Shown piece after piece: positions 2,203 to 58,467 of a DNA stretch of 64,000 bases (within the stretch, counting starts at the first letter, position 1; the number at the start of each line of letters is the position of its first letter). The stretch covers positions 11,196-75,195 of the IMG/VR virus record IMGVR_UViG_3300031911_000003; one strand, written 5' to 3'. Under the pieces are notes generated by a model. The model did no database searches. It worked only from the letters and a program-made list of their open reading frames with translations, and was not told the DNA's origin. Made by a program: the position numbers and the translations under genes. Source of the stretch: a virus. Lineage: Duplodnaviria; Caudoviricetes.

Positions 2203-2214
2203 CCATCTTCCGTC

Positions 2215-2883: not shown

Positions 2884-3018
2884 AATAGCCTGAGCGCCCT
2901 CCCTTACACGAATGATCGAGCAGGTCAGCAACAGCCCCTGAACCTCAATCGTCTTCGAGCCTGATCGCGTAACCGCCTCGTAATTGCAGTAACTTCAACA
3001 TTCTCACCATCTCCTCTT

Positions 3019-7582: not shown

Positions 7583-7594
7583 GACGAGAGATGG

Positions 7595-10433: not shown

Positions 10434-10491
10434 GATGCGGATGGTAGGAGGTACCAGATGACAGACAAATCAACGACTCAAGGATTTAAAA

Positions 10492-11284: not shown

Positions 11285-14125
11285 TTACACTCCCACTGTG
11301 AAGGTGTCTGAGATCGTGACCGCGAAGCCGATGGTTCCATCGAGCTTGAGCACCTTGGCGAGCGGCACCATGGTGAGCGACCAGGCGACGGTCAGCGTTC
11401 GCGCGGTCTGCTCGATGCGCGAGACGCCGAAGGTGAAGGCCGACACGTGGTTCACGCCGTTGTCGTTGATGAGGCCTCCGTTGTTGAGATCGCCCCGCAC
11501 GCGTCGCTCGATCTGCTGCGCCTGCACCTCGGCGAGCGTGCCCGTCGCAGGATCGGTCAGCACGTTGGCGTTCAAGATGACGGCCAAAGAGCGATTGACG
11601 CGGCGGAACGCCCTGTTCATGACGCGCCGTCGCTCCCAGAAGATGAAGTCGTTGCCGTCGTCTACGAGGTTCAGCGTCTGCCGGATGAATACGCCATCGT
11701 ACTCGACGAGCGTACGGCCCGTGGTGACGTTCTGCGCGTGCAGCTCGAGGAGCGCCGAATCCGACTCCCACAGCGCGGCCCGCTCCTCGGTGCCTTCGGC
11801 TACGGTGTGGAGTCCCGTACCGGGGATCGCGAACTGGGTGCCGTCGGCTGTGAGTACGCTGCAGAGCGTCTGGTTCGGCGACTGGCTGATCACTACGTTC
11901 ATGCAGCGCGCGAGATCCAGACACGCCCGGCTCTTCTGCATCTGGCAGCCGTACAGCGTCACGATCGTGTCCTGCTCACCTCCCGCGTAGTTGACGATGC
12001 CGCCCGAGCTGCGCGGCGAGGGCAGCGCGGCGTTGAAGTTCGCGGCCCACAAGAGGTCGTCAGACTGCAGCTGCGTCACGCGGTAGAGGCCCTGCACGGT
12101 TCCCCAGAGCGGCACCTTCTTGCTGTCCTTGACGTCGCGGAGCCACGCCTCGAAGACCTGGTAGGTGGCGTTGTCGCAGTCGTCCTGTACAAGGTGGACG
12201 TGCTCGATGTTCTGTAGGGTCTTCAAGTACGTCGACTTCAGCGTCTCGAGCGCGGCGGAGAGTCCCGCCAGGTCGAAGCGCGGCGGCGTCGTGTAGCTCG
12301 TCCACTCGTCTCCCGCCTCGACGGCGACGGGCAGCGAGACGAACTCATCCCACGCTCCAGCGATCCCGAGGCCCGTCCCGGTGACGGTTGGCGCCGTCAC
12401 GAGCGCCAACACGGAGGCGGGCGCGGTGCCGTAGAGGGTCACGAGGTCGTTCGGCGTCGAGGTTTGCGCGCCGTTGGTGTCGGTGGCGAGCGTTACCGTG
12501 ACGTCGAGCCCCGCAGCAGTGATGCCCGCGGCGGTGCTCTGACCCGAGGCGACTTGACGGACGCGGACACCCGGTTTCTTGGCCGTCCAGAGCGTACCGC
12601 CGTTCGGCGCGAGCCCCGGCCCAGCACTGGCGACGAGCCCTAGGCCCGTGCCTACGGTGTCCACTGCGTTTACGAGGAGCCGCGCGGCGAGCGTGCCGGC
12701 CGAGACGTCCGTCTCGAAGAAAGCCTTCGCGGCGGCTCCCGTCGTCGTCGCGGCGGCGTCCACACCGCCCGCGAGCGGCGTCGCCCCGTGCGTGTCGCCC
12801 GGCGCGGCGAGGACGTTGCCGTTCGTCCCGCCGGTAGCGGTGACGCTGCCGAACGTCGTGCTGACTGGGAAATGGGCCTTGACGTTGGCGACGGTAGTCA
12901 CGCCGTCGTCGTAGTGGACGGTGATCGCGTTGCCGATGACAGACACGGCGTCTGTCCCATCCTCCACGAATGCCACGGTGATCGAGTTTCCGCCGGCGCC
13001 GGCCGTCGCAGAAGCGAACGTCAGCCCAGCGAGGTTGCCGCCGAAGCCCGCGTAGCTCGCCGCCACCGCGCCGCTCGTCGCGGTGGTGAAGGTGACGGCC
13101 GAGCCAACGACGCCGAAGCTCGGCGTCGCGTTGTCCGTCGTCGGGACATCGACCTCGATCGAGGCTCCGGCTGTGGCGAACGTCCAGACGGTGTCCCCGT
13201 TGACGGTCGCGCCCGCCGCGCGATAGGCACCGTAGAGCGTCTTGGCGACGGTGCCCTGAGCAAAAGTCGCGCGGATGCCGGTGTGCCAGCGGGTGAATCC
13301 GCCCGGATGGGTGTACAGGTCCAGCTCGCCCAACTGCGGGATCGTGAAGGCGGGGGACCACGTCACACCGTCGTCCGCCGACCAGCGCACCTGCGGCTGC
13401 TGCGCGCCAGAGACGGTGATCTGCCCGCCGCGCGTCGACTGGAAGCGCAGGTGGTCGAAGCGGTCTAGCGGCCCGGCGTACTCGAAGCTGAGAGCCGTCG
13501 TGCCGACGGGGTCGACTGGGGCGCCGCCCGAAGTCTGCGTGCGGTAGCGCACCATGGCCTTCACGCGCTCGCCGGCCGCGGTGCCGAAGGTACCGGGGCC
13601 GTTCACGGCGTAGGCCGCCTGCCGCGCCTGCCCGGCCTCGTCGAGGTAGTCGACGACGGCGACGTGTGCGACGGTGCCGGCGCCGTGCGTGCTCGTGAGC
13701 GGGAGCGGTGATGGGGGCGTCGCGAACCCGCCCTGGCGATCGACAGCCGCACCGCCGGGGATCGGGTCGGGAGCGGCGGCGAGCCCATCGAAGGTGGCCG
13801 CCGCGAGCGACAAGACCGAAGGCGATGGGGCGGAACCCGCGGGGCGCTTGACGACGGAGCCGAACGTCCCCGGCTCGGCGGCCAGCACCTGGAAGCCGTA
13901 GACCGTGCGGTTGCAGTTCGCGATGTGCGGCCCGCTGTCGCTCGCGAGGGGGCCGACGCCGAGGCGGTTCACGGTCGCAAGTTCCCGCATGACGACGGGC
14001 TTGCCAACGATGTACGCCGAGGCGACGCCGATCTTCAGGATAGTGCCTTCCTGCGTGTCGGCTACGGTGGACAGGTTGCCGTTGAGCTCCCTGATGTTCA
14101 AGGCCGGGTTCGGAGTGCCGCTCAT
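11285..14125 (-). CDS. Contractile tail sheath protein
   Basis: 946 aa; sheath C-terminal domain 'ERRRVMNRAFRRV...IERRVRGDL...LTVAWSLTMVPLAKVLKLDGTIGF'; followed by the tube gene. Confidence 0.88.
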   Translation of the reverse strand: MSGTPNPALNIRELNGNLSTVADTQEGTILKIGVASAYIVGKPVVMRELATVNRLGVGPLASDSGPHIANCNRTVYGFQVLAAEPGTFGSVVKRPAGSAPSPSVLSLAAATFDGLAAAPDPIPGGAAVDRQGGFATPPSPLPLTSTHGAGTVAHVAVVDYLDEAGQARQAAYAVNGPGTFGTAAGERVKAMVRYRTQTSGGAPVDPVGTTALSFEYAGPLDRFDHLRFQSTRGGQITVSGAQQPQVRWSADDGVTWSPAFTIPQLGELDLYTHPGGFTRWHTGIRATFAQGTVAKTLYGAYRAAGATVNGDTVWTFATAGASIEVDVPTTDNATPSFGVVGSAVTFTTATSGAVAASYAGFGGNLAGLTFASATAGAGGNSITVAFVEDGTDAVSVIGNAITVHYDDGVTTVANVKAHFPVSTTFGSVTATGGTNGNVLAAPGDTHGATPLAGGVDAAATTTGAAAKAFFETDVSAGTLAARLLVNAVDTVGTGLGLVASAGPGLAPNGGTLWTAKKPGVRVRQVASGQSTAAGITAAGLDVTVTLATDTNGAQTSTPNDLVTLYGTAPASVLALVTAPTVTGTGLGIAGAWDEFVSLPVAVEAGDEWTSYTTPPRFDLAGLSAALETLKSTYLKTLQNIEHVHLVQDDCDNATYQVFEAWLRDVKDSKKVPLWGTVQGLYRVTQLQSDDLLWAANFNAALPSPRSSGGIVNYAGGEQDTIVTLYGCQMQKSRACLDLARCMNVVISQSPNQTLCSVLTADGTQFAIPGTGLHTVAEGTEERAALWESDSALLELHAQNVTTGRTLVEYDGVFIRQTLNLVDDGNDFIFWERRRVMNRAFRRVNRSLAVILNANVLTDPATGTLAEVQAQQIERRVRGDLNNGGLINDNGVNHVSAFTFGVSRIEQTARTLTVAWSLTMVPLAKVLKLDGTIGFAVTISDTFTVGV

Positions 14126-14131
14126 GCCTCC

Positions 14132-14149
14132 CGATGGTCGGGACCATCC
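14132..14149. promoter_or_regulatory. Pair of divergent ACCATC late boxes
   Basis: CGATGGT-CGGG-ACCATCC; 6 nt to the sheath ATG (minus) and 5 nt to ATG 14155 (plus). Confidence 0.75.
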
Positions 14150-14154
14150 TGATT

Positions 14155-14496
14155 ATGAGGATCGCACCGCAGGTCACGCCGCCCGCCTCTCCAGACGCAG
14201 TCAAGGATCTATCGCCGCCAGGTTCCATACTCCTATCAGGGACTAACGCGCTGCAGCTCACGGCGAAGGTGACCGCCGGCACGCTGACGCTCGAGCCGCG
14301 CTTCTGGGATGGCTCGAGCTGGGTGCCGCTGCGGGGGGACGCCGTCGTTGGCTCGTCCGCCGTCGTCGCCGACTTCGCCACCGCGCCCATCGCCTCGCTG
14401 ACCATGCGCAGGGCGGCGGAGCCCCGGTGGTGGGTCGTGATCCAGTCCGGCGGGGGGACCTTGGACTACTGCGACATCTCGGAGGCGGTGAAGTAG
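14155..14496 (+). CDS. Putative small virion protein (beta-rich)
   Basis: ATG 14155 has ACCATCC 5 nt upstream; abuts the next gene. Confidence 0.55.
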   Translation: MRIAPQVTPPASPDAVKDLSPPGSILLSGTNALQLTAKVTAGTLTLEPRFWDGSSWVPLRGDAVVGSSAVVADFATAPIASLTMRRAAEPRWWVVIQSGGGTLDYCDISEAVK

Positions 14497-16550: not shown

Positions 16551-17168
16551 TCAGCCCTCGCAGGATCGCGGGTCGCACCCTATAGCAGCGATCCAGGCCA
16601 TCCGCACCCCACCATTATCACTCCGAGGACCGGTAGCCGTCTCCTCTTTCTTCTCAGGCTTCTTGGCCGTTTTGTCGCTGCAGCTCTTCTGATCGTACTC
16701 ACACGTTCGAGGCGTAGCGCGCCTGCACTTATAACAATCCGGGCACGCAGGCACGCACTTGGCGGCGAACATAATTCGAGCGGCGGGCACTATCCCAAGC
16801 GCACCCCAGATGGCCAAAGAGAGCAGAAGCGTCGACGCTCCGATCTTGGCGGCGATGCGCAGGACGTCCTTGTGGACGGCGTCGACCTTGGCACCGATCG
16901 TGTTGTGGGCATCGGTGACGGCGCGCTCCGATCGCGCGATGTCCTTGTCGGCGTCGGTGCGCAAGTCGGTGAGGAGCTTTTCCTGCCGCGCGTGCGAGGT
17001 GTCAGTGAGGACCTTCACCCAGTCGAGCAGCTTCGGGATGCCCTTCCATACGGACCACAGCGCTGCGAGCAGGATGCCGGCGAGTAGCGCCGACAAGAGG
17101 GTGATGACGAATATGAGCGGCGTGCGCTGCGCGAGCTCCGTTGCGGCCTTGACGTACTCGGGTTGCAT
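16551..17168 (-). CDS. Late membrane protein (two TMs, coiled coil, Cys-rich C-terminus); lysis candidate
   Basis: Start re-assigned to ATG 17168 because ACCATCC lies 6 nt upstream; TM segments plus CVPACPDCYKC...CEYDQKSC. Confidence 0.6.
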   Translation of the reverse strand: MQPEYVKAATELAQRTPLIFVITLLSALLAGILLAALWSVWKGIPKLLDWVKVLTDTSHARQEKLLTDLRTDADKDIARSERAVTDAHNTIGAKVDAVHKDVLRIAAKIGASTLLLSLAIWGALGIVPAARIMFAAKCVPACPDCYKCRRATPRTCEYDQKSCSDKTAKKPEKKEETATGPRSDNGGVRMAWIAAIGCDPRSCEG

Positions 17169-17184
17169 GCGAGAGGATGGTGGG

Positions 17185-18573: not shown

Positions 18574-19113
18574 CTACCACCTGCGTCCTCCGTACCCAAA
18601 CCAGTTTCGGTTCGGCGCGGCTCCAACCGGCGTGGCGGGCTGCGGGCGCTCGGTGCCGAGCAACCGCTTGTCGGGAGTCAACATGTAGTCCTGCGCAGCC
18701 TTGATCATCTTGGACGCCCCGGCGTACTTCCGCCTGAAGCGCGCCTCCTCGTCACGCCCCTGGTCGCCCGGTTGGTAGCCGCGGACCTCCATGGCGTAGT
18801 ACGCTGCGATATCGCACACCCAGCCCACCCACGCCTCGCTGTACGCCTGCAACGGCGTCTTGAAGCGGTGGCAGATCATGCTGTCCGCCTCGCGCGACGC
18901 CCGGCGCAGCTGGACGTGGAGCAGCGCGTCGCCCGGATACTGGAAGTCATGCTGCGTCGTCTCGGCGAGAGAGTAGAGGAAGAGCTCCTCGACGGTCGCG
19001 TAGCTGCCGTCGAGGCCGCTCGAGGCGCGGTATAGCGTCCCAATAGACCCGGACCTTCCGCTCGGCGCGGACAGTGTGAAGGCGATTCCCGACGGGGTAA
19101 GAGTGCCAGCCAT
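18574..19113 (-). CDS. Head-tail adaptor, Mu gp36/DUF1320-like
   Basis: YATVEEL...ASREADSMICHRFKTPL...VCDIAAYY...RRKYAGASKMIK; ACCATCT 5 nt upstream. Confidence 0.82.
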   Translation of the reverse strand: MAGTLTPSGIAFTLSAPSGRSGSIGTLYRASSGLDGSYATVEELFLYSLAETTQHDFQYPGDALLHVQLRRASREADSMICHRFKTPLQAYSEAWVGWVCDIAAYYAMEVRGYQPGDQGRDEEARFRRKYAGASKMIKAAQDYMLTPDKRLLGTERPQPATPVGAAPNRNWFGYGGRRW

Positions 19114-19146
19114 GCCCGAGATGGTGGCGAGCCGCGCGCGCTCTGA

Positions 19147-25086: not shown

Positions 25087-26034
25087 CTAGACAGAGCCGC
25101 GACCGTTGCACGTCGAGCAAGTGAACGAAGCCATCTGCATGAATGGCTCGTCGCTGGCTATGGAACCGAGGCCGTTGCAGACAACACAGGTGCGCTTTTT
25201 GGCAGTTCTTGTTGCTTGCTTGAACTCCTCTAACTTCGAGGCTGGAATGGGTGCGCCGTGCGTCAGGCTAACGGGGCGCCGACAGCTGAGACATTTGCCG
25301 CAACGCGGAAGTCGCTGGCAATCTTCGACGAGAAGCTCGTCACGCTCCTTTCTGACCCTTTCGAGAGCAGCACGCGTCTCGGCGTGTAGTGCGATCTCGT
25401 TCTCGAGCGCCGACGGTGCGCGCTGCCCGCGCATCGCATGCTGGCACAGCGTCTCCCAAGTGTCGTAGTCGAAGTCCTTGCCGCGCTTTGTCCGCGCGTA
25501 GGTGACGCACTCGTCGAGGAGCTTCTGGCATTCGAGCATTACTGCGACTTGGTTTGCGTGCGCTTTGCTCTGCGTTTCGAGTAGCGCCCCGAGCTGATCG
25601 GATTCAGAGCGTGCCACATCGCGCGCCTTAATCTCCTCGTCGAGGTCTTTAACGAGGCGCTGCTTCGTCTCTGCCCAGTCAGTACTGAGCTTCGCGAGCA
25701 GTGCCTCCGTCTCGATCGCGAACTGCGCCCCGACCTGCCGTACCCCACTGACGATGAAGTGGCGCGAGATGGCTGCCCACAGCTGGACGTGCTCGAAGCC
25801 GAGTGGCGGGGCTTCGACAGTCACCTGCGCGAGGATCAGCGCCAGCGCGCCGTGCATCTCGTGGGACTGCGGCGTCGGCGCCTCCGTCATGAGTAACTTG
25901 TGGATGGCGAGCGGGTTCGGGCAGGCACCCCGCTTGACGGCGCAGCACAGCGCCTGCATTTGCTCGCATAGCAGCGCGACTTCCGTAGTCGAGGCCGCGA
26001 GCTTGGCGCGTAGGTAGGCGTTGTTGGCGATCAT
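25087..26034 (-). CDS. Coiled-coil protein with C-terminal CxxCxGxG zinc finger
   Basis: CVVCNGLG...CSTCNGRG; ATGA-coupled start. Confidence 0.55.
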   Translation of the reverse strand: MIANNAYLRAKLAASTTEVALLCEQMQALCCAVKRGACPNPLAIHKLLMTEAPTPQSHEMHGALALILAQVTVEAPPLGFEHVQLWAAISRHFIVSGVRQVGAQFAIETEALLAKLSTDWAETKQRLVKDLDEEIKARDVARSESDQLGALLETQSKAHANQVAVMLECQKLLDECVTYARTKRGKDFDYDTWETLCQHAMRGQRAPSALENEIALHAETRAALERVRKERDELLVEDCQRLPRCGKCLSCRRPVSLTHGAPIPASKLEEFKQATRTAKKRTCVVCNGLGSIASDEPFMQMASFTCSTCNGRGSV

Positions 26035-26273
26035 CGCCCCATCTCTTCGTTGCGATCGAGCTGAAAACGCACGAACTTGAGGTCGGCGTGGCGCAGCCCG
26101 ACGAGGCCGGCAAGTGCGAGCGCTAGGCAGATGAGGACGGCAAACAGCGGCCAACGCGGCGGTTGCGGAACGGCGAGCAGCCCGCTCTGCTTGTCTGCGC
26201 GCTGCAGGCACCTCTCAATTTCCGCGTCGCTGAGGGTATAGGTTGAGCGAATGGTATTCTGCGATGGCTGCAT
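26031..26273 (-). CDS. Small single-TM protein
   Basis: WPLFAVLICLALALAGLVGL segment. Confidence 0.55.
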   Translation of the reverse strand: MQPSQNTIRSTYTLSDAEIERCLQRADKQSGLLAVPQPPRWPLFAVLICLALALAGLVGLRHADLKFVRFQLDRNEEMGR

Positions 26274-31561: not shown

Positions 31562-32596
31562 TCAAACGAGTAAAGAAGCCCCATCCCAATTGAGCAGCAC
31601 GTCGCCGAGAGCAAGCGTCGCGCCCGTCTCGGCGCAGCCGTTGTCGGGGTTGACGGCATCGAGCAGCACTGGCGACGATCGACGAAGCCCACCGTAGCGG
31701 ATCATTTGCGAAGTACCCTTCTCGTCGCAGGTGTTGGCGTCTCCGACCTCGCCAGGAAGTAACGTGCCAGCCAGAGCGGCGCGACGCGCGTAGATGAAGG
31801 GCAACTCGGGCGTCGTCGGCGTCGGGTAGGCTAGGCTCGTCGAGGCGCCGCCCGGCACGTAGCGCTGCGGATCGCCGTTACCGTCGAGCTGGTAGAGCAT
31901 GCCGGGCGGGCAGCGGCCCCAAAGCTGCTCGGGCGTCGCGTAGCGGAACAAGCTGCGCGGCGCGGCAGGGTCAGCGCTGATCGTGTCGCAGAGCACGCAG
32001 CCTGCGCCCGTCGCAGCGTAGAAGACGATACGCTCCCTGTCGAGTAGGTTCCCGCCCTTGCCCCGCGGGTTCGGCTGCGGTCTGTCGATGAAGAAGAGCG
32101 CGGTCGGTGCGCCAGTGCCGACGGCGTACGAGAGGAACCAGCACCGCTCATCGTCCTCGCTGGCGTAGCCCTGCATGCGGCTGCCGGAAGACGGCCAGAG
32201 CGGTGAATACGTAGGTGACGCGTCGGTGCCACCACCGAGCAGGTAGATCTCGTCCGCGGCCGATGGCGTCCGCACGAGGTTCGGTGAGCCGCCCGTGAAG
32301 CCGGCACGCGGACTCCACTTCAACCGCACGCCTCCGACTGCGTCGACTTGCACGCACAGCTCTGTATTAGGGTCGACAACGTCTACGAACGGGCGCCCCC
32401 GCAGCACGAACCAGGCGCCCGGCGCCGCGAGGCTCGCGGCTGATGTGATGACGTCGCCCTGCGCGGCGTAGACTATGCCCGTCGAAGAAGTTGGCACTGT
32501 CCAGTTAGTTCCGGAAGTGCCGACGTTGAGTGTGCGCTTGAACAGGAAACAAGCTTCGGCGGCCGAGACAGGCGCCGCGTTCTTGAGGAATGCCAT
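31562..32596 (-). CDS. Putative virion protein (stand-alone late gene)
   Basis: 344 aa, Gly/Pro/Thr-rich; ACCATCT 5 nt upstream. Confidence 0.55.
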   Translation of the reverse strand: MAFLKNAAPVSAAEACFLFKRTLNVGTSGTNWTVPTSSTGIVYAAQGDVITSAASLAAPGAWFVLRGRPFVDVVDPNTELCVQVDAVGGVRLKWSPRAGFTGGSPNLVRTPSAADEIYLLGGGTDASPTYSPLWPSSGSRMQGYASEDDERCWFLSYAVGTGAPTALFFIDRPQPNPRGKGGNLLDRERIVFYAATGAGCVLCDTISADPAAPRSLFRYATPEQLWGRCPPGMLYQLDGNGDPQRYVPGGASTSLAYPTPTTPELPFIYARRAALAGTLLPGEVGDANTCDEKGTSQMIRYGGLRRSSPVLLDAVNPDNGCAETGATLALGDVLLNWDGASLLV

Positions 32597-32679
32597 ACGA
32601 GAGATGGTCAGGTCAGCGACGAGCAGAGCTTCAGTGTGTTCGCGTTACTCGCCGCTGTCGGTGAACCCGTTCCACGACC

Positions 32680-35392: not shown

Positions 35393-37096
35393 TTACTTGC
35401 GCTCCATGCGGATGTTGCGCGCGTCAGCCGGCGCGCTCGCTTGCTCGTTGACGACGACGGTGGCGCCGTTCGGGTTGAGGGGTCGGATCGGGCGCTCGGC
35501 CAGGCGATCGTTCATCGTGCTGCTCTCCACCGTCGCGCCGGGCCGGATGCCCGCAGCCGCGGAGCGGAGGCGCTCCACGTCGAGCCCACCGCGCCGGGCC
35601 ATCATCGCGAAGACGCCGTCGAGCGCCGGGTCGGCGCTGCGCGTCTCGCGGGCGGCGGGCGGCGGAGCCAGGACGGACGGTGGTGCAGTTCCGTCGCCGC
35701 TCCTGAGCGGCGCGGTTCGCGTCACCTGGGCAACGGCGCCGGCCACCTGAATCTTGAACGTCCGCAGCTGCTCGAGCGACCAGGGGCGCGAGGCGCGCTT
35801 GTTCTCGACGCTGCCGCGAACGTAGCCGACCGGATCCATGCCGAGCATCTCGGCCTCGAGGCCGGGCTCGAGGCCGGCATCGGAGGCGGCGATCTCGAGC
35901 ACGAGCTTCTGCCGCTCACTGTCTTCGGTCTTGGCGGCGGCGGAGCGTTGCTCGCTGAGCATGCGCTTGTGCGCGGCCTCGACGGTCTGCATCGCGGCGA
36001 ACTTCGTCCGCAGCTCGGCGGGCGTCTTGGCGATCTTGCCTCCGACGTCCGCGAAGGTCTGTTCCGCGTGCGGGAGGCAAGCGCGCTGGCAGGCGGCCCA
36101 CTCCTTGGCCATCTCCTCGTCGCCGAGCTTCTCGGGCGCGGCGCGCATCATCGAGTTGAAGAGCGCGACGTCCTGCGCGGCATCGGCGTGCCCGCCCATC
36201 TCATCGATGGAGGCGGTCATGAGGTTCACCATGCCGAGCGCAGTCTTCATACACCCACGCGCACATTCCTTGAAGAAGGCGCGCAGCGACTCGTCAGAAG
36301 TCGCGGCCATCATCGCCAGCGCGTCGCCGGCAGACCGCATCTGGTCAGAGATCGACCAGCGGATCTGGTCGCGCAGCTCGGGGGTCAGCATCTTGAAAAC
36401 TCCAGTCGTGAAGGCGAAAGGTTGCGCGTCACGCTTCGTGATGGTAGAAGAGGTAGTCCACGTCGTCTTGGGTCCAACTTGCTGCGGAGGTGCCAAATGC
36501 GCTAGTTTCGTAATTCCCGCGCGCTGCGCGGCGCGCAGCCCATCTTCGGCTGCGCGGACGCACAGGGCCATTGGGTTCGACGGCGTCGCGCAGCTCGAGC
36601 CCTCGCGGATTTTGTAGCGCTCGTAGACGAGCGTCGAGCCTGCGACGCCCGTAGCGAAGCACTGCCCGCACGGTCCCCATTTCGTCTCACCCTCACCGCC
36701 GCAGCCCTCACAGTCGCCGCCCTCGCCGAGCTCGACGCGCGTCGCACCCTCGATCGGGTCGAAACCGAGGGAGCAGCCACGCAAGAAACCCCGCACATGG
36801 TCCGCGTAAGTCTCGGCGGCGATCTGCTTGTCCATGTTGAAGCGCACGCGGACGCGGAAGCGCTCTGGCGACTGCTCGACGACCTGCACCATGTCGCCGA
36901 GGACGTTCCTGACACTGCCGCTCGCGTGCGTGTCGAGCCACGGCCTCGCCTCGCTGTGGAACTCGGCGCCCATAGGGTCTAGGCGCGTCCCGTAGGTGTC
37001 CCTGTGCGGGGTGACGAGGTCGAAGTCGAGCACGCCCTCAGGGAGAGTTTCGCCCTTTACGGGCGCGAAGAAGCTGTAGGCGCGGCGCATCTGCAT
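35393..37096 (-). CDS. Prohead protease (HK97/S78-like) fused to scaffold
   Basis: DTYGTRL, LRGCSLGF and EGSSCATPSNPMA motifs; zinc-ribbon insertion; helical C-terminal half. Confidence 0.8.
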   Translation of the reverse strand: MQMRRAYSFFAPVKGETLPEGVLDFDLVTPHRDTYGTRLDPMGAEFHSEARPWLDTHASGSVRNVLGDMVQVVEQSPERFRVRVRFNMDKQIAAETYADHVRGFLRGCSLGFDPIEGATRVELGEGGDCEGCGGEGETKWGPCGQCFATGVAGSTLVYERYKIREGSSCATPSNPMALCVRAAEDGLRAAQRAGITKLAHLAPPQQVGPKTTWTTSSTITKRDAQPFAFTTGVFKMLTPELRDQIRWSISDQMRSAGDALAMMAATSDESLRAFFKECARGCMKTALGMVNLMTASIDEMGGHADAAQDVALFNSMMRAAPEKLGDEEMAKEWAACQRACLPHAEQTFADVGGKIAKTPAELRTKFAAMQTVEAAHKRMLSEQRSAAAKTEDSERQKLVLEIAASDAGLEPGLEAEMLGMDPVGYVRGSVENKRASRPWSLEQLRTFKIQVAGAVAQVTRTAPLRSGDGTAPPSVLAPPPAARETRSADPALDGVFAMMARRGGLDVERLRSAAAGIRPGATVESSTMNDRLAERPIRPLNPNGATVVVNEQASAPADARNIRMERK

Positions 37097-37120
37097 CCTG
37101 CGCCGAGATGGTCGCCGAGG

Positions 37121-38826: not shown

Positions 38827-40491
38827 TCAATCATCGTCGCCTGCGCCGAATTCCGTGGTCGCAGTGGCTTCCTGCGAAGCTTCGCCGCCTGCGTCGGAGC
38901 CTTGGGCCTCCGTTTCAACGGATTTTTCCTCATCTGTCACCGTTTGAGCGCCGCTATCCGTTTGGCTACCATTCGGACTGCCGGACTGGGCCACCTCCGC
39001 TTCCGCCTCGTCTAAGAAACCGGCTCGAACGAACCAGTGCGCCGCGGGAATGCCCGGCAGCGACTTCTCGAGCTGCGGCAGCGCGGCGGCGAGCGTCGCA
39101 ATGCCGGAGGCCGTCTCCTGAGCGCGCTTTGAGCGCTGCTCCTCGCGGGCCGCCTGGTCCTCCGGGGGGGTCGCGTCGCGCCACACGTACGGCGCCAGTT
39201 CGAAGTCTCGGAAGTTGAACCACGTGATCCAGCGCGTGAGCTGCGAGCGCAGCACGCCGCTGCACGGCTCCCACACGACGCGGTCTGCGCCCGTCTCGGG
39301 ATCGCGGTATGTGCGGCGTCGCGCGTCCCAGAACCATGAGGCGCTCTCGCCGTACTTCTGCCAGAGAGTCTCCTTGTGGACAACGGCCTGTTTGAATCCG
39401 CCGGTCTGCCCCACGGAGGTCATGTCCTGCCCGAGGTAGACGAGCAAGATGCGCCGCAGGATGCGCTTCTCGGTATCGCTGAACGCCTCCCAGCCGCTCC
39501 CAGACGTGTGTATGAGCTCCACTTCCTCGAGCCGCTTGCCGTCGAGCATGCGCAGGGGGATAACGGCGCCGCTGCCGACGCGGGCGATGAGCTGCGCCGA
39601 GGTCGGCACCTGGCCGGGTCCACCCGCCTGGTCGGCGTGCGGGAAGTTCGCGTCGGCGAAGTATTTGGTGAATCCGAGGCCGAAGCGCTCCGTGAACGCC
39701 TGGTTCGTGAGGAAGTTGAAGAGGTCGCCGATGAAGTCGAGGCCCAGCGAGTAGACCGCGCCGTAGATCCAGGGGTTCCGGTTCGCGGCTTTCGAGAGCA
39801 CCCAGCGGCCCATGCCCGGCTCGACGACGAGCAGCCCCTTGTTTATGGTTGTCGCGCAGAAGTCGCCGCCGTCTACGCTGCGGTCGTTGCCACGGTAGAA
39901 GTATTGCGTCTGTGACGGGTGCCAGGGCTTGAGCACCGGCAGCCAGAACCGCTGCCGGCCGTCGCGGCGCTCCTCCCAATCAGCGCCCATAATGCCCTGG
40001 CCCATCTGCAGGCGGTCGTCGTGGAAGTTACGCAGCGTCGCGTCGGGGTAGACGTCCTGCTCGATCTCGGCGAACCAGTCGCGCACCCATCGCGCGCGAC
40101 GGCACTTGGGGCGGCGGCAGTCCTCGCCGTGCTCGACGACGCACGCGGCCGACACGTGCCTCGGCAGGAGACTGTTCACGCCCTCCCAGCGGACGTTCAG
40201 CGCGTCGGCGATGACTGGATGCAGCCGGAAGTCGTCGGCGAGAAGCCCCGCTGCGCCGAACGCGCCGCCCGCCATGGACGAGATCGCGGCCTTGGCGCTG
40301 TCGACGTTCCAGCCATAGACGTCTCGCTGCCCAAAGCCCTGCATCGTCGGGACCTGCGCGATGCGTCCCGTCTGCGGCTCGCGCGGTGGCTTGGCAACAA
40401 CGCCCGTCGGCGAGACTGGGAGTAGGCCGCTCGCTGCGCGGTGCAGTAGACTGGCAGCACGCAATCGCAGGTCATGCAGGGTGTAGGCCAT
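38827..40491 (-). CDS. Portal protein, Mu gp29/DUF935-like
   Basis: LKPWHPSQ, FTERFGLG, ILLVYLGQDMTS.GQTGG..QA.VH motifs; ACCATCT 7 nt upstream. Confidence 0.85.
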   Translation of the reverse strand: MAYTLHDLRLRAASLLHRAASGLLPVSPTGVVAKPPREPQTGRIAQVPTMQGFGQRDVYGWNVDSAKAAISSMAGGAFGAAGLLADDFRLHPVIADALNVRWEGVNSLLPRHVSAACVVEHGEDCRRPKCRRARWVRDWFAEIEQDVYPDATLRNFHDDRLQMGQGIMGADWEERRDGRQRFWLPVLKPWHPSQTQYFYRGNDRSVDGGDFCATTINKGLLVVEPGMGRWVLSKAANRNPWIYGAVYSLGLDFIGDLFNFLTNQAFTERFGLGFTKYFADANFPHADQAGGPGQVPTSAQLIARVGSGAVIPLRMLDGKRLEEVELIHTSGSGWEAFSDTEKRILRRILLVYLGQDMTSVGQTGGFKQAVVHKETLWQKYGESASWFWDARRRTYRDPETGADRVVWEPCSGVLRSQLTRWITWFNFRDFELAPYVWRDATPPEDQAAREEQRSKRAQETASGIATLAAALPQLEKSLPGIPAAHWFVRAGFLDEAEAEVAQSGSPNGSQTDSGAQTVTDEEKSVETEAQGSDAGGEASQEATATTEFGAGDDD

Positions 40492-40634
40492 CGCCCGAAG
40501 ATGGTCGCCGAGCTTGACGCAGCGACGGGAAGTACCGAAGATACTTCAATGCTTGCAGCAAATATAACTTGCGACACCTATGTAGGTGGTTTGTTCATAA
40601 GCTTGTGTGAAGACGCAAGCATTCGCGCTGACTT

Positions 40635-45923: not shown

Positions 45924-47678
45924 ATGTATCGGAGCTCACCCATGAAGCGCGTACTTTCTACCGACATCCCCAACACGATCAGCGGTGAGCGACGGAAGGA
46001 GTGTAAGAAGACGTTCATCGTCGACCCAACGTGTGTCGTCTTCGCCATCGGGCCGGACAGCTGGCTGCGCGACGGGCGCGAGGACATCGCCGTCTCGGCG
46101 TCACTCGTCGGCTCGCTCATCCTCGCCAACGACACCGACAACCGCATCGACGGCCCGCGGGTCGGCGAGGGCCACGGCAACGCCGCCCGTGTACCCGCTG
46201 ACAAGACGGCGCAGGTGCCAGGCTACGACACGGCCGGCAACCCCGTGCTCTGGGGGGCGCTGTCGAGCGTCCAGCTGACGGTGATGGGCACCGACACCGA
46301 GCCCGTTTACGTCATCTCGGCGGCGGGGCGGCAGACGGCCAAAGCTAGCGAATACTTGACGGGCCTGCTCCGCCGGCTCCGTGAGCTCTATCAGCGCGTG
46401 TACACGGCTCTCGAGCGAGAGCGAGAGGAGTGCCGAGCGAACCTCGCCTCGCTCCTCAAGCGCAAGAACCTACAGCCGGCTGAGCAAGAGCGATTGTTTG
46501 AATTGCAGGCTGCTGACGAAACCTTCAAGAAGCGTACACTCGATCAGCAGGCGCTTGAAGACGTACAGGCCGAGGCGCGCAAGGTTCGCGACCCGGTGCT
46601 AGCGGAGCTGTCGGACGCGCACTTCCTGGCCATCTTCCGAGGCGTCGCCGGCTTGAAGTTCGGCAAGCCGCTCGTCGGGCGCACCTACAGCGCCGTCTTC
46701 CACCTATCCGTGGGCTACGTGCCGGACCTGCCGTCCGACTACCGGAGCCTCGAGCGCTCGAAGCTCGCGAACTTCCAAGTGCCCAGCCCCCCCAGCGCCG
46801 AGGCAGACAACACGCGCCGCCTCGTACGTGAGTACGTCCTGAACGGCGTATGCGCCGACGAGGTGCAGGCCCTCGAGCGCGTCCGGCAGTACGTCCGGCC
46901 GCTCATGGCCGTGGGCGCCGAGCAGCCACCGAGCGCCCAGTACGTCATGCAGCTCTACCGCCTGGACATGCTCGTGCCGGAAGCGAAGAAGGCGGTGGAC
47001 GAGCAGGCGGACCCACGCAAGATGCTGGCGCTGTTCGAGAAGCTGACGAAGCGCCTGTTCCGCGAGGCGCTCGAAGAAGTCGAGCGCGGCAACCTCAAGG
47101 TTCACCTCACCTGTAACGAGATGTCTGACGATGAGCAACGCGCCGAGCTCGCAAACATCCTGAACCCACCGAAGCGCGGGCGCACCGACAAGCCGAAGTT
47201 AAAAACTCAGTCTGTGGTTCCTGTCCGATCGGATCGCGCGCCGATCCTCGCCAAGCTCGCGGCGCTGCGCAGCCCAATGAACTCACTGTCCGACGACCAG
47301 CGCCGCGAGGCGGCGGCCGTCGCGGCTTGGGAGCGCTTCCAGGCGGGCGATGCCGCCGCGCTCCGAGACTACCCGCATCTGGCCAGCGCGGTCGCTGACG
47401 CGGAAGCTGAGGTCGACAGCGAGGATACGCCGTTGCAGATGGCTTTGGACTTCCTCGACGGCTGGAACGGGCGGGACAAGATCGAGTTGCAGGCGTTCGC
47501 TGAGCGCCAGCCGAAAGAGGACGGCGAGCTCATGGCGTGGCGCGCGCGGGGGAAGACACACGAGGCTAAGCGCTTGGTGGCGAAGAAGCTCATAGAGGAC
47601 GCGGCGGCCAAGATGCCGAAGACCGTCAAGCCCGACGAGCGCGCGAACTGGATCAGAGAGGAGTTGGAGGCGAAATGA
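45924..47678 (+). CDS. Large hypothetical protein, possible degenerate ParB-like N-terminus
   Basis: 'VYVISAAGRQTAKA' resembles the ParB ia.GrrR.rA box; helical remainder; strong coding bias. Confidence 0.5.
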   Translation: MYRSSPMKRVLSTDIPNTISGERRKECKKTFIVDPTCVVFAIGPDSWLRDGREDIAVSASLVGSLILANDTDNRIDGPRVGEGHGNAARVPADKTAQVPGYDTAGNPVLWGALSSVQLTVMGTDTEPVYVISAAGRQTAKASEYLTGLLRRLRELYQRVYTALEREREECRANLASLLKRKNLQPAEQERLFELQAADETFKKRTLDQQALEDVQAEARKVRDPVLAELSDAHFLAIFRGVAGLKFGKPLVGRTYSAVFHLSVGYVPDLPSDYRSLERSKLANFQVPSPPSAEADNTRRLVREYVLNGVCADEVQALERVRQYVRPLMAVGAEQPPSAQYVMQLYRLDMLVPEAKKAVDEQADPRKMLALFEKLTKRLFREALEEVERGNLKVHLTCNEMSDDEQRAELANILNPPKRGRTDKPKLKTQSVVPVRSDRAPILAKLAALRSPMNSLSDDQRREAAAVAAWERFQAGDAAALRDYPHLASAVADAEAEVDSEDTPLQMALDFLDGWNGRDKIELQAFAERQPKEDGELMAWRARGKTHEAKRLVAKKLIEDAAAKMPKTVKPDERANWIREELEAK

Positions 47679-47726: not shown

Positions 47727-48017
47727 GTGCGGTTCGCTAAACCGAAGGTGCAGCGCCGGGTCGCGAAGAATCCGCACTACGCCGATCGCTTCCGCGGGGC
47801 GCACGCGGCGAAGGTCGCAGCCGCGCAGAAGCGACGCGCCGAACTGCTCGCGAAGCAAGCAGAAGAGGCGCGCAAGGCCCAAGAGAAGGTCGCAGCTTCA
47901 AAAGAGACGGCAGATAACGCTCGAATCGTACGAAGCCTGACCATCCGCTCCACTGAACGCTTGACAGGTCGTACCCGAATCTGCAACAGTTCGAGCTGTG
48001 GAAACCACGCAGCATGA
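47727..48017 (+). CDS. Basic hypothetical protein
   Basis: K/R/A-rich 96 aa. Confidence 0.4.
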   Translation: MRFAKPKVQRRVAKNPHYADRFRGAHAAKVAAAQKRRAELLAKQAEEARKAQEKVAASKETADNARIVRSLTIRSTERLTGRTRICNSSSCGNHAA

Positions 48018-49092
48018 TCGCAGTAGTACGTTCGCCAGATACTTCAAGCGCTGGCTCGGGCGCCGCCTAGTCGAGCGCCCGAAGCCGCAGCCTCCCGCGC
48101 CACCGCCGAAGCCCAGCAAGCACGCGCGCCTGCGTGCGGAGCACAGGCACCTCCACATCTCGGCCGATCTACGAGCCCGCGCGACGAGCAGGCGACAGCT
48201 CGCGCCAATCGATCCGCAACTCGCGCGCATCATCGCAGAGCGCCGGATGGGTCGGCACCCACGCACCCAGAAGCCTCACCCACTGCCCGCGAGCTGCCTG
48301 AAGAAGTGCGGCGTCCGAGACTGCGCGCACGCGCAACCTCGCGCACTGCTCAGACTCCGCGACGAGTACGCCGCCGCGAACTACGATCTAGCGCATCGAG
48401 CGGCGGACAAGCAGTGGCAGCGCAACCAGCACCTCGAGCGGGAGATTGTGCCGTGCGTCTACCACAACACCGCCGAACCGAAGAAGTGCCGCTGCCGAGG
48501 GCGCCGGGAGTACCTCTGCCAACCCGACCTCGAGCATCTCGCGTACATCGGTCTGCTCGACGCGATCCTCTACTTCGACAAGGACAAGGCCGGCTGTCTC
48601 TCGTCTTACGCTGTCCACAAGATGAAGTTCTCGATGCTGACGCTTTTGCGTCAAACGCCTGTCTACTACCCGCCAGACCTGCTCCGCGACCGCCGAGACG
48701 TGGGCGCGCTGCGCAAGACTCTGTGTCGAGAGCCGACCGAAGCTGAGATGGTGGTTAAGCTGGCGGAGCGGGGTGCCTGCACTGCTGAGCGAGCGCGGCT
48801 CGCGATGAACTGCTACTACGGCAATGAGCGGAAGAGCGTCGAGGAGCTGCATGAGCAGTACTTTGGTCGGACCTCGCGGGAGGATCGCCGCGCACGTAGG
48901 TCGCGCGGGGAGACGTTCGTCGAAAACCTGTCCATCGAGCAACCCCGCCGTGGAGAGGATTCAGACGGGGACGTGATCGAGGCCATTGCGTCGCTGCCCG
49001 CGGAGCTGCGAGCAGACGCGCAGAGGGCTCTCGGCGGGCGATCGAAGCTATCCGACGCCACTCTCGGCGCGCTGCGCGAGGCGCTGCTCTAG
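47998..49092 (+). CDS. Phage sigma70-family factor (regions 2-3, truncated region 4)
   Basis: ANYDLAHRAA (2.1), DLEHLAYIGLLDAILYFD (2.2), LSSYAV (2.3), LCREPTEAEM (3.0). Confidence 0.85.
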   Translation: METTQHDRSSTFARYFKRWLGRRLVERPKPQPPAPPPKPSKHARLRAEHRHLHISADLRARATSRRQLAPIDPQLARIIAERRMGRHPRTQKPHPLPASCLKKCGVRDCAHAQPRALLRLRDEYAAANYDLAHRAADKQWQRNQHLEREIVPCVYHNTAEPKKCRCRGRREYLCQPDLEHLAYIGLLDAILYFDKDKAGCLSSYAVHKMKFSMLTLLRQTPVYYPPDLLRDRRDVGALRKTLCREPTEAEMVVKLAERGACTAERARLAMNCYYGNERKSVEELHEQYFGRTSREDRRARRSRGETFVENLSIEQPRRGEDSDGDVIEAIASLPAELRADAQRALGGRSKLSDATLGALREALL

Positions 49093-52514: not shown

Positions 52515-52562
52515 CTCTAATCCTCCTCTACTGCCGACCATCCTCCTCGAAAGTACTACACT

Positions 52563-54179
52563 TTGTCAACCTCGTTTAAGAAGCGTCCAGCGCGGCGACG
52601 GGAAGTCGCGCGGCACGACCACCCCGGACGAACGTCTTTTGTCGCGTTCATCAGGCACGTCCGACCGGGACTGTACATCTCGCAGCAAATTCGACTACTC
52701 GCCCGCAAGGTCGAACGCGCGCTCGTTCACAAAGAAGGATGGCTGCGCCTCATCCTCGTTTGGCCCCCGCGCACCGGCAAGACGACGGCCGGGAGCGTGC
52801 TTCTCCTCGCCTGGGTCTTCGGCCTGCATCCGGACTGGGAGGCCATCGTTGGCAGCCTCAGCGGCAAGCTCGCTTCCAAGATCGGCGCGAAGATCCGCCA
52901 GATCATCGATAGCAAGCGCTTCGCCGAGGTCTTTGGCGAAGTCGGCATCAGCAAGCACACGGCGGCGAAGACCGAATTCGCCGTCACACACCGGACGCCG
53001 AAGGGTGAGGACGGACTGGCCGAGGGCTACTTCTTCGCATCCGGCCGCAACACGCGCGCGACCGGCCAAGGCTCTCACCTCTTACTTTTCGATGATCTCA
53101 TTGGTGAAAAAGAGGCCGACTCTAGACCAGCGATTGAAGACGCAGAAGAAGCGATCCAGATGTGGCGCAGCCGCGGCGCTCCGTCCGGCTTCCACTGGAT
53201 AATCAACAACACGCGCTACCGCGAGGATGACCCGATCGGACACATCCTCAGCAACTACGCCAACGACGGCCCGTGGGATGTGGTCATTCTGCCGTCGATG
53301 GTTGAGATTGAGAGTGAAGAAGGTGACTTTGAGCTCGACGACGGGACGATCTGGTGTCGCCGGATCGGCGAGGTAATCTGGCCCTACTCGCTGAACGTCG
53401 AGCAGTTCATGGCGACGCGCGCCGGACTCCTAGAGCACAAGCCGCACGAGTGGTACGGCCAGCACAAGGGGAAGCCGAAGCCGCCGCAAGGGCGACTGCT
53501 CGACAGGAACGACTTACAGCTCTACGAAGAGGCGCCTACGGCGATTCGCGCCCGCTGCGACCGGGTCGCGGTCATCGTCGACACGGCGCGCAAGGCCGAG
53601 GAGAAGAACGATCCGTCGGGAATCCTGGTCGTCGGGCAGTGGCAGAACAGACACTACGTTTTGTACGCGCTGGCGAAGCGGCTCGAGTTCTTGGACCTCT
53701 GCGCCCACGTCGCCCGCATCTGCCAGGAGTGGCGCCCGCACAGGCTGATCGTCGAGTCGAGCGCCAACGGCACAGCGCTGGTTAATTCGCTGCGCCGGCT
53801 CGGCCACGCCGTCGAGATACAGCCGAGCGGGAAGAAGGAAGAGGTGCCTTTCAACACCGCCTGTGAGGAGGTCAACGTTCCCAGCAACCAAGGGTCCAAG
53901 GTTATGCGCTTCGACGCCGTCGTGCCGCCGACCGTGCGCCAGCACCTCGTATGGCTGTCACGAGGGGCGCCGTGGCGCGAGGAGCTGTCGCAGCAACTCG
54001 CCGACTTCCCGCGCGTCGCGCACGATGACCTGTGCGACGCGCTCGCCATCTGGCTCAAGTGGACGGCCGAGCACAGCGTCGCTTCGTTGTCCGCGCCTTC
54101 GCCGCCTGCTGGGCTGGCCAAGGCCGCCGCGAACCCCGCGAGGCCGCAGCCGCGCGAGCAGTGGACGCGGCTTAGGTGA
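52563..54179 (+). CDS. terL: Terminase large subunit
   Basis: PPRTGKT Walker A, LLLFDD Walker B, nuclease VDTA...DPS and HDDLCDA; ACCATCC at 52537-52543. Confidence 0.93.
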   Translation: MSTSFKKRPARRREVARHDHPGRTSFVAFIRHVRPGLYISQQIRLLARKVERALVHKEGWLRLILVWPPRTGKTTAGSVLLLAWVFGLHPDWEAIVGSLSGKLASKIGAKIRQIIDSKRFAEVFGEVGISKHTAAKTEFAVTHRTPKGEDGLAEGYFFASGRNTRATGQGSHLLLFDDLIGEKEADSRPAIEDAEEAIQMWRSRGAPSGFHWIINNTRYREDDPIGHILSNYANDGPWDVVILPSMVEIESEEGDFELDDGTIWCRRIGEVIWPYSLNVEQFMATRAGLLEHKPHEWYGQHKGKPKPPQGRLLDRNDLQLYEEAPTAIRARCDRVAVIVDTARKAEEKNDPSGILVVGQWQNRHYVLYALAKRLEFLDLCAHVARICQEWRPHRLIVESSANGTALVNSLRRLGHAVEIQPSGKKEEVPFNTACEEVNVPSNQGSKVMRFDAVVPPTVRQHLVWLSRGAPWREELSQQLADFPRVAHDDLCDALAIWLKWTAEHSVASLSAPSPPAGLAKAAANPARPQPREQWTRLR

Positions 54180-57574: not shown

Positions 57575-58006
57575 ATGATAGTTGGAATACAACACCCTAC
57601 ACCAAAGATTTCGCATGTTTATGTAGTGAGGTGCAGTAGATCTGAGGTGGTGTTTCTGATAAGCTCTCAGACGATGAGACGAGAATGGAAACTCTGCCTG
57701 TACCGCGTCTACGCACTCCGCGACCCGAGAATCAAAGGTCACATTCCCTCTATTAGATACATCGGGCGGACGGAAGCCCGCTTATCGGAGCGTCTCCGTA
57801 CGCACCTGAGCCACGCCAAAGATCTGAAGAGGAAGACGCCTTATTTCGAGTGGATTCGCGAGCTTGTTCGCCTTGGATTCGCGCCCATCATCGAGGAACT
57901 AGCGAACGTTCCTGAGCGGCAGGCTTCGCTTAGGTTGGAGCTCAAGACGATCAGAGAGTATCGAGTGAAAGGTGCGCCGCTGTTCAACCATCTTCCGCTG
58001 AAGTGA
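57575..58006 (+). CDS. GIY-YIG endonuclease
   Basis: VYALRDPR...RYIGRT...ERLRTH...LELKTI; true start probably 57674. Confidence 0.85.
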   Translation: MIVGIQHPTPKISHVYVVRCSRSEVVFLISSQTMRREWKLCLYRVYALRDPRIKGHIPSIRYIGRTEARLSERLRTHLSHAKDLKRKTPYFEWIRELVRLGFAPIIEELANVPERQASLRLELKTIREYRVKGAPLFNHLPLK

Positions 58007-58467
58007 CGACGGCAAACGAACAAGACTTCACATTCACGGATGGGGAGAAGAAGCTCCTCATCGAGCGCTACGTCGGACACGGGTACGACCCGAGGGACGT
58101 CCACCTCCTCCTTTGGGAGGGCGTCGAGCCGCGCTGCGCCTACGACGCGTTCCTCTCGGCCTACGCTGGTTTCGTCGTCGAGTACATGCGCCTGTGCGGC
58201 GAGCGCGCCAAGGGGAAACCCTCCGCTGACGACGCTGAGGGGCGAAGACAGCAGCGCGATGTGCGCGACATCGTCTTTGAGATGATCCGCGAGCTCGCCG
58301 ACATGGACGGCGGAGACGACCCACTCGCGAAGTTCCACGCGATGCCTAAGCTCGTCTCCGCCCACGATCGCCTCGTCCGCAGCACGCGCGACGCCGAGAA
58401 GCACGATCTAGACGTCGCCGGCTCCATCCACAACATGATGGCCGCGAGCGCCTCTCGCGAAGATTGA
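58003..58467 (+). CDS. Hypothetical protein
   Basis: GTGA-coupled, helical; no recognised family. Confidence 0.55.
   Translation: MTTANEQDFTFTDGEKKLLIERYVGHGYDPRDVHLLLWEGVEPRCAYDAFLSAYAGFVVEYMRLCGERAKGKPSADDAEGRRQQRDVRDIVFEMIRELADMDGGDDPLAKFHAMPKLVSAHDRLVRSTRDAEKHDLDVAGSIHNMMAASASRED

Follow-up and report, generated by a model that had tools for sequence, protein, structure and literature searches.

Leaderless middle and late genes are known from Thermus phage P23-45, in which -10-type promoters without a -35 element place the transcription start site at the start codon and the host sigmaA is retargeted by gp39 and gp76. The late promoters of phage T4 have a single -10-like element, TATAAATA, with no -35 element, and are served by gp55, a late-gene specificity factor for the host RNA polymerase (RNAP) that consists of sigma2 only. 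Sigma region 4 contacts the flap tip helix and reads the -35 element, and the T4 protein gp33 clamps the flap tip, itself binding no DNA (PMC7892883). Group 3 sigma factors (FliA/sigma28, WhiG, SigB/F and RpoH) share the domain order sigma2-sigma3-linker-sigma4, and the extracytoplasmic function (ECF, group 4) sigmas, which are small alternative sigmas, use strict promoter motifs, lack sigma3 and have a complete helix-turn-helix (HTH) in sigma4 that reads the -35 element. Here we describe a 64,000 nt stretch of phage DNA (the window), which corresponds to bases 11196-75195 of the 75,195-bp IMG/VR record IMGVR_UViG_3300031911_000003 (Caudoviricetes). It contains a gene, 47998-49092 (+), for a 364 amino acid (aa) protein that resembles sigma factors, and a hexamer, ACCATC, that recurs a few nucleotides before the start codons of virion genes. 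The best explanation, to which we assign a probability of about 0.5, is that the protein is a late sigma factor driving -10-only ACCATC promoters that yield leaderless mRNAs.

Identity and domain architecture of the predicted sigma factor

The gene and the parts of its product, with the evidence that delimits them, are as follows (pLDDT, predicted local distance difference test).

47998-49092 (+): sigma factor coding sequence, P0001, 364 aa, GTG start; open reading frame (ORF), 13 homologues, hhalign to canonical sigmas, sigma fold matches
47998-48198 (+): N-terminal basic extension, residues 1-67, with KHxRLR..RHL..DLR; H42, R44, L52 and R59 invariant; low pLDDT, unaligned by hhalign
48199-48339 (+): region 1.2-like helix (residues 68-95) and CCCH block (residues 96-114); VIA alignments, pLDDT 94-97
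48340-48660 (+): sigma2 domain, residues 115-221, regions 2.1-2.4; structure superpositions, FliA alignment
48433-48522 (+): Cys-rich insert between regions 2.1 and 2.2, putative zinc knuckle, residues 146-175; gap in canonical sigmas
48661-48864 (+): sigma3 domain, residues 222-289, regions 3.0-3.1, including NCYYG..KSVEEL; hhalign and FliA, SigF and RpoS alignments
48865-48960 (+): region 3.2-like linker, residues 290-321, Arg-rich then acidic; pLDDT 43-55, aligned to region 3.2 by hhalign
48961-49089 (+): truncated sigma4, residues 322-364, region 4.1 and one helix, conserved C-terminal LRExML-COOH; three helices

The pipeline gene call for this ORF was shorter, 281 aa from M84. As the KHxRLR..RHL..DLR motif (residues 41-60) lies upstream of M84 and is common to the homologues (13, at 38-61% identity), we conclude that the 364 aa form is the real one.

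We are confident that the product belongs to the sigma70 family. Profile searches gave a divided answer. When the 364 aa protein itself was used to query Pfam, no hit was returned, Sigma70_r2 falling below threshold, but PF04542 is precomputed in four homologues and a profile of the family finds canonical sigmas. Run against 1.84 billion representatives, this profile retrieved only about nine close clusters and then a long tail of weak matches, and the members of the tail that were tested are canonical sigmas with Pfam r1.2, r2, r3 and r4. Alignment of the family with 15 canonical sigmas by hhalign gave a probability of 99.5% (E 6.9e-23) and was collinear across residues 91-364. The NCBIfam FliA/WhiG family matched residues 175-256 (E 1e-5), the same stretch that is matched by the FliA, WhiG and SigF chains in the PDB, and a PHROG sigma family matched with an E value of 3.5e-4. 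The score against TIGR02479 (FliA/WhiG) was 25.3 bits, against a cut-off of 189.6, which places the protein outside that subfamily.

An AlphaFold model of the protein has a pLDDT of 79 overall, exceeding 90 at residues 70-270 and 330-364. Its top Foldseek and VIA-align matches are sigma factors only, with the top Foldseek hits in holoenzyme structures. VIA-align superposes sigma2 on SigE-N, sigma70, RpoS and sigmaK at 2.2-3.1 Å (Z 7.8-8.9); the match to SigE-N 8b3z has a root-mean-square deviation (rmsd) of 2.2 Å over 78 aa (Z 8.9), and 1sig and 3ugo score Z 8.9 and 8.4. Over the full length, WhiG (Z 10.2) and SigB (Z 9.2) were returned. A preliminary description of this DNA had called the protein a phage sigma factor, and the hhalign probability and the sigma2 superpositions support its membership of the sigma70 family. 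The closest matches in both sequence and structure are the group 3 sigmas, which have the same order of domains. Unlike them, this protein has a 67-aa basic N-terminus, an optional CCCH block and a Cys-rich insert of about 28 aa between regions 2.1 and 2.2, its sigma4 has lost one HTH helix and the C-terminal part, and its scores are far below the family cut-offs.

The N-terminal extension (residues 1-67) has no counterpart in canonical sigmas, and the VIA alignments begin at residues 67-71, opposite sigma70 residue 116 and Taq sigmaA residue 110. The CCCH block, reported earlier as an N-terminal C-x3-C-x4-C-x-H segment and confirmed as C100-x3-C104-x4-C109-x-H111, sits where the non-conserved region of sigma lies and is found in 6 of the 13 family members. 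Region 2.1 occupies residues 115-145 and regions 2.2-2.4 residues 176-221, the best-conserved part of the protein (75% mean identity). Between regions 2.1 and 2.2, hhalign places residues 141-169 as an insertion. The motif strings quoted in the preliminary description were all found in the protein, and the one from this insert, CVYHNTAEPKKCRCRGRREYLC, is residues 153-174. Here the insert has the arrangement C153-x2-H156...C164-x-C166...C174, with a beta-hairpin (149-152/171-174) in the model. It has at least four Cys in all 13 members, usually as CxxC-x4-CxxC, with C153, C164 and C166 invariant, so that what had been noticed in one protein is conserved throughout the family. As this Cys pattern is typical of zinc knuckles, the insert probably binds zinc.

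Regions 3.0-3.1 align at residues 219-289, confirming a sigma3 domain between sigma2 and sigma4. The FliA, SigF and RpoS alignments reach approximately residues 255-279, and Tth sigmaA (9fo6_F) covers residues 68-285 of the model. A sub-threshold RpoH alignment had suggested that region 4 lies at NCYYG..KSVEEL (residues 263-289). This placement was rejected, as the hhalign alternative has a probability of 0.08% and the structure puts the segment in sigma3.

No relatives were found when the protein was used to search 50,697 deposited phage genomes (tblastn), and an IMG/VR scan with the sigma alignment returned no match. Sigma homologues are encoded at 18 metagenome loci; the family is small and found only in metagenomes. 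A literature search found no comparable sigma with a zinc insert.

Residues of the putative -10 reader

In regions 2.3-2.4, the equivalents of F419, Y430 and R436 are F193, Y204 and K210 (the last as K), which are invariant or nearly so in the family, and the conserved residues for -10 melting and recognition are thus present. At the W433 equivalent (position 207), nine members have H and four have W, and the W434 equivalent is variable. The equivalents of Y425, W434, T440 and R441 are altered, as they are in other alternative sigmas. The Q437 equivalent is Q in 10 of the 13 members and differs only in this protein and two relatives. The preliminary description regarded this segment (FDKDKAGCLSSYAVHKMKFSM, residues 193-213) as a rewired -10 reader in which the WW dyad and Q437 had been replaced. 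Both are indeed changed here, but loss of the dyad is normal in alternative sigmas (RpoH has AVHWIK and FliA AVQRIR, that is, HW and QR for the dyad, a divergence comparable to that seen here) and the change at Q437 is limited to 3 of the 13 members. With the F419, Y430 and K/R436 equivalents kept, the divergence is ordinary for an alternative sigma and the term rewired overstates it.

Position 437 is Q in phages L005-L009 and H in L014, and ACCATC boxes are found in all of them. As the box is kept whichever residue is present, residue 437 does not specify it, and the change from Q437 to F was ruled out as the determinant of ACCATC by the Q-containing phages L005-L009, which have the same box.

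Truncated region 4

Region 4.1 was placed at residues 324-345 by hhalign, the last helix is residues 353-363 and the protein ends at residue 364, in agreement with the earlier statement that only about 40 aa remain once region 4 has begun. The sigma4 stub is thus approximately 43 aa and three helices long. Every family member lacks one of the two HTH helices, and a 12-residue gap in the hhalign alignment falls at the place of the first HTH helix of canonical sigmas. When the C-terminal 49 residues were modelled alone (pLDDT 80.6, three helices), VIA-align returned mostly sigma4 domains (Z 4-5.2, rmsd 1.7-3.0 Å), including those of SigL, SigA-sigma4, SigW, SigD4, sigmaE region 4, SigR region 4, sigma28 and sigma32; Foldseek returned no match for the sigma4 fragment. 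As the 44-49 aligned residues of the stub stretch across 60-72 residues of the solved domains, we conclude that the modelled stub is a genuine sigma4 minus one helix.

The terminal helix has the consensus S..TL..LRE.ML, with one conserved basic residue, an Arg. All family members stop at LRExML or at most 13 aa later, including the 400-aa version in L014 and those at the L003-L013 loci. The prediction that there is no 4.2 HTH therefore held: structural modelling showed no intact region 4.2, and the protein does not have the sigma4 domain with a region 4.2 HTH that reads the -35 element. The stub superposes best on ECF sigma4 domains (SigL 6dv9_F, Z 5.2, 31% identity; SigW; SigK), and a strict promoter motif would be a further likeness to that group of small alternative sigmas. 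However, the protein has a sigma3 domain and an incomplete HTH and is not an ECF sigma.

The preliminary description also proposed an analogy with T4 gp55. As a proposed late-gene specificity factor for the host RNAP the protein does resemble gp55, but for the architecture the analogy was wrong. The gp55 structure (7d7d_F) matches through the sigma2 fold only (Z 7.2, 9% identity), whereas this protein keeps sigma3, the 3.2-like linker and the three-helix sigma4 stub in one chain. In its proposed function it would be gp55 and gp33 in a single polypeptide, a -10 reader joined to a flap binder that does not read the -35 element.

A different sigma was observed at L023:635-1591 (-) (IMG/VR UViG_3300033066_002135), in a distantly related phage whose portal is 37% identical. 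This 319-aa protein exceeds the Pfam r2 cut-off, lacks the Cys insert and ends in a C-terminal domain that is longer and of another kind, which makes it a useful outgroup for both the truncation and the insert.

ACCATC boxes precede virion genes

The window contains 29 copies of ACCATC, compared with 17.8 expected. Thirteen of these are 5-10 nt upstream of a long-ORF start, for which the ORF had to begin with ATG or GTG and to reach 100 aa or more (p=1.9e-11). This is the top result among all hexamers, and none of the others is close to it. Major capsid protein is abbreviated as MCP.

900-905 (-): box 6 nt before the ATG of the baseplate wedge gene (3-893)
2202-2207 (+): box 7 nt before the GTG of ORF 2215-2883
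3006-3011 (+): box 7 nt before the GTG of ORF 3019-3498
7590-7595 (-): box 7 nt before the GTG of the tape-measure-like gene (5534-7582), overlapping the TGA of the upstream gene
10440-10445 (-): box 6 nt before the ATG of ORF 9891-10433
14133-14138 (-): box 7 nt before the ATG of the tail sheath gene (11285-14125)
14143-14148 (+): box 6 nt before the ATG of ORF 14155-14496; L014 orthologue also boxed
17176-17181 (-): box 7 nt before the ATG of ORF 16551-17168
19120-19125 (-): box 6 nt before the ATG of the head-tail adaptor gene (18574-19113)
32603-32608 (-): box 6 nt before the ATG of the MCP-like gene (31562-32596); L008 orthologue also boxed
37107-37112 (-): box 10 nt before the ATG of the head protease/scaffold-like gene (35393-37096); L008 and L014 orthologues also boxed
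40500-40505 (-): box 8 nt before the ATG of the Mu-type portal gene (38827-40491); L005, L014 and L021 orthologues also boxed
57987-57992 (+): box 10 nt before the GTG of ORF 58003-58467

The genes preceded by a box are of the virion class (baseplate, sheath, tape measure, adaptor, portal and head). Replication, rII and nucleotide-metabolism genes have no box, and many of them have a Shine-Dalgarno (SD) site of the AGGAG type, which is absent from 11 of 14 box genes. Along the late clusters the boxes are spaced every two to three genes with SD-led genes in between, the pattern expected of operon heads with leaderless first cistrons. The box extends to ACCATCT, with T in 16 of 23 sites. No conserved positions that could represent a -35 element were found upstream in an alignment of box sites, nor was any other conserved promoter-like motif found upstream of late genes. 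As a putative promoter, the box would resemble those of T4 in having no conserved upstream positions and would differ from them in its sequence and in its fixed spacing of 6-7 nt to the ATG. At 14133-14148, two back-to-back boxes serving the sheath gene (-) and ORF 14155-14496 (+) diverge from one another and are only 4 bp apart, leaving no room for -35 elements. An identical 26-nt extended box, TCGTCGCTGACCTG-ACCATC-TCTCGT, precedes the tape-measure-like gene (7576-7609, -) and the MCP-like gene (32590-32622, -), and could be the strongest-promoter version or a recent duplication.

The possibility that the ATC within ACCATC acts as a Kozak-like non-canonical start was rejected, as 6- and 7-nt spacers are equally common and there is no consistent frame. 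ACCATC was not found as a phage promoter in a literature search.

Boxes in related phages

At the longer loci that encode sigma homologues, ACCATC was again the top start-proximal hexamer (L014, 4/5; also L005-L008). When the boxed ORFs elsewhere were compared by tblastn, they proved to be orthologues of boxed genes in the window, with identities of 48-50% for the portal, 55% for the MCP-like protein and 39-43% for the head protease-like protein. In four phage lineages besides this one, orthologous genes are likewise preceded by ACCATC. As the box is kept between orthologues while the nucleotides that flank it are unrelated, the sequences indicate that it is under purifying selection. Of the 55 exact boxes counted across five non-redundant loci, 21 are start-proximal, compared with a background of 2.3%, while the 18 one-mismatch variants, pooled, show no enrichment (20/1171 start-proximal, 27 expected). 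The spacing from box to start is 6-7 nt in 19 of 24 sites. PHROG recognised only 1 of 10 box-preceded ORFs in the related loci. The boxes of the preliminary description, which had named this sigma as their likely reader, are thus real; they are confined to late genes and are inherited together with this family of sigmas.

Single-protein scans with the portal and with the MCP-like protein returned no match, and a scan with a portal profile returned two IMG/VR relatives, L021 and G002. In L021 (GC content 54%), ACCATC is the best hexamer (4/9). The more distant G002 encodes a divergent sigma (PF04542, 37 bits) that lacks the Cys insert, and in this relative ACCAT precedes some of the late genes.

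A second start-proximal motif, gacTATCAGcgc, was seen 8-9 nt before a 256-260-aa ORF in L005, L007 and L009 (-) and at L014:-12777. Present in two sigma-bearing lineages, it may be another type of leaderless promoter.

Neighbouring genes and genome setting

Upstream of the sigma gene and on the same strand, in operon-like order, are a 584-aa gene and a 96-aa ORF.

45924-47678 (+): 584-aa gene, possible sigma partner; adjoins the sigma gene in three lineages
47727-48017 (+): 96-aa ORF, basic and coiled-looking, with coding-like, GC-rich third codon positions; overlaps the sigma GTG by 20 nt

The 584-aa gene stays beside the sigma gene in three lineages though its orientation differs (window 45924-47678 (+), L006:989-2245 (+) and L014:11209-12840 (-)), and its product could be a functional partner of the sigma. 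Pfam, PHROG and ESM Atlas searches with this product returned no match, and no family match was found for the 96-aa ORF. The ACCATC copy nearest to the sigma gene (47940), 52 nt from the GTG, is in frame as Thr-Ile inside the 96-aa ORF. As that ORF is coding-like, this copy is probably incidental and was rejected as an autoregulatory box of the sigma gene itself.

The window has a GC content of approximately 63% and, on the PHROG and Pfam annotation, derives from a contractile-tailed phage. Annotated virion genes include those for baseplate wedge, tape-measure-like, sheath, head-tail adaptor, Mu-type portal and head proteins and TerL; early and replication genes include rIIA/rIIB and genes for primase, helicase, DNA polymerase, an SbcCD-like protein, ThyX, ribonucleotide reductase and deoxynucleoside monophosphate kinase. 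CheckV estimated the completeness of the record at 61%. However, the other contigs on which the sigma protein is found are 76-80 kb long, and a record of 75 kb is therefore probably close to complete. Searches of the phage's own record returned no second sigma (PF04542) and no S21 (PF01165). That for a T7-type RNAP (PF00940) also gave no match, a weak negative because its control was silent, and no ORF in the window is sufficiently large or similar to be an RNAP candidate.

Two further proteins in the window have weak matches. A 79-aa ORF (10492-10731, +) has a match below the cut-off to the DnaN C-terminal domain (PF02768, E 0.0011), a match worth noting in view of the need for a sliding clamp in T4 late transcription. 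A 374-aa protein (25087-26211, -) encoded beside the helicase gene has a C-terminal match, also below the cut-off, to a DnaJ-type CxxCxGxG zinc finger (E 2.4e-4), together with a weak PHROG match to 'Q-like antiterminator'.

Proposed mechanism

In the reading that we prefer, the sigma would be expressed with the early or middle genes from host-type signals. Its sigma2 would bind the host core RNAP via the beta-prime clamp helices and its sigma4 stub would bind via the beta flap tip, which it would hold in the manner of T4 gp33, with no reading of a -35 element. Initiation would then be directed to -10-only promoters in which nothing but ACCATC(T) is conserved, and an invariant DNA target would fit with regions 2.2-2.4 being the best-conserved part of the protein. 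Given the spacing of 6-7 nt between box and ATG, a hexamer occupying -12 to -7 would put +1 on the start codon or within 1-2 nt of it. The late virion mRNAs would be leaderless, and the downstream genes of each late operon would keep ordinary SD sites. The proposed leaderless late genes would recall those of P23-45, but with a dedicated phage sigma instead of a retargeted host sigma and with a box other than TATAAT.

The steps of this proposal are not equally secure. We think it reasonably likely that the ACCATC boxes are promoters. Co-occurrence and gene class are what connect them to this sigma, and for the sigma as the reader of the box we put the chances at even.

Several observations weigh against the late-sigma reading. 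Binding, transcription and 5' ends are predictions, and the link between sigma and box is a co-occurrence in one phage clade that shared ancestry alone could produce. A ribosome-binding site would occupy the same position as the box. L021 has boxes, and no sigma was found in its 38-kb record, which at 40% complete is uninformative. The window's own record may also be incomplete, and another reader of the box could be encoded elsewhere. Some box sites have spacers of 8-10 nt, and GTG, a poor start codon for leaderless translation in Escherichia coli, opens 4 of the window's 13 box genes. Before the TerL gene (within 52537-52565, +), the box lies 20 nt from TTG 52563, the only canonical start, and neither ATG nor GTG is present at a spacing of 6-7 nt; a short leader or a non-canonical start codon may be used for TerL. 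In the protein, zinc binding is predicted from the sequence pattern, and the last helix of the modelled sigma4 superposes on the recognition helix, so that some contact with DNA may be possible.

Alternative explanations

The principal rival, which we think unlikely though less so than the others, accepts the protein as a genuine sigma with another promoter and treats ACCATC as an mRNA signal, either a late-gene element for non-SD translation initiation or re-initiation or an RNA-processing site at which leaders are trimmed. Boxes 6-10 nt before start codons are where an SD would be, several of them overlap the stop codon of an upstream co-directional gene (TGACCATC), as in translational coupling, and with 11 of 14 box genes lacking an SD something must recruit ribosomes. 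However, ACCATC is not complementary to the canonical anti-SD, which the phage uses for other genes with AGGAG sites, and pairing signals slide and degrade gracefully, whereas the box is all-or-none with spacing sharply at 6-7 nt. It is confined to one temporal and functional class of genes, upstream of which there is no other conserved promoter-like motif, and the phage's own record yielded no S21 protein.

It is improbable that the protein is instead a sigma-derived RNAP-binding factor that does not initiate, such as a decoy or appropriator that sits on the core or the beta flap and shuts off host transcription dependent on sigma70 and the -35 element. The truncated sigma4 without a full HTH, the long basic N-terminus that is not sigma-like and the failure of Sigma70_r2 to reach the Pfam threshold would all be consistent with such a role, but a mere blocker would have no need of regions 2.3-2.4 that are the best conserved (75%), with invariant equivalents of F419, Y430 and K/R436. 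Sigma3 and the 3.2 linker are also retained, and a matching invariant DNA motif exists at the late genes. We give similarly little credence to the idea that the boxes are promoters read by another polymerase or factor, from an unsampled part of the genome or from the host (for example, a phage RNAP with promoters close to the transcription start), with this sigma serving middle genes. The CheckV estimate of 61%, the silent control in the T7-type RNAP search and a sigma gene that has no evident tie to any particular box leave some room for it, while the 76-80 kb contigs that carry the sigma protein, which point to a record that is probably near complete, and the lack in the window of an ORF large or similar enough for an RNAP and in the record of a second sigma, argue in the other direction.

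Implications

Taken as a whole, the late-sigma reading describes a single-chain sigma with a zinc-knuckle sigma2 and a sigma4 that would act as a flap anchor without reading DNA, an invariant ACCATC, initiation at the start codon and leaderless virion mRNAs, in at least five divergent lineages of uncultured myoviruses. That this combination constitutes a previously undescribed late system is a claim we make tentatively, at slightly less than even odds. For annotation, ACCATC-N6-7-ATG marks the true starts of late genes in this clade, which gene callers that rely on SD sites will misplace. If the reading is correct, the very short and strictly invariant box would be a new promoter element that fixes the start of transcription on the start codon, and programmed leaderless expression of a whole late regulon would become directly testable in a proteobacterial-type phage. 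The compact, orthogonal pair of sigma and promoter might also find use in synthetic biology. The architecture of the protein itself would be new among sigmas. It would reveal to what extent sigma4 can shrink within one chain, and would form a natural link between full sigmas and T4, in which the functions are split over gp55 and gp33.

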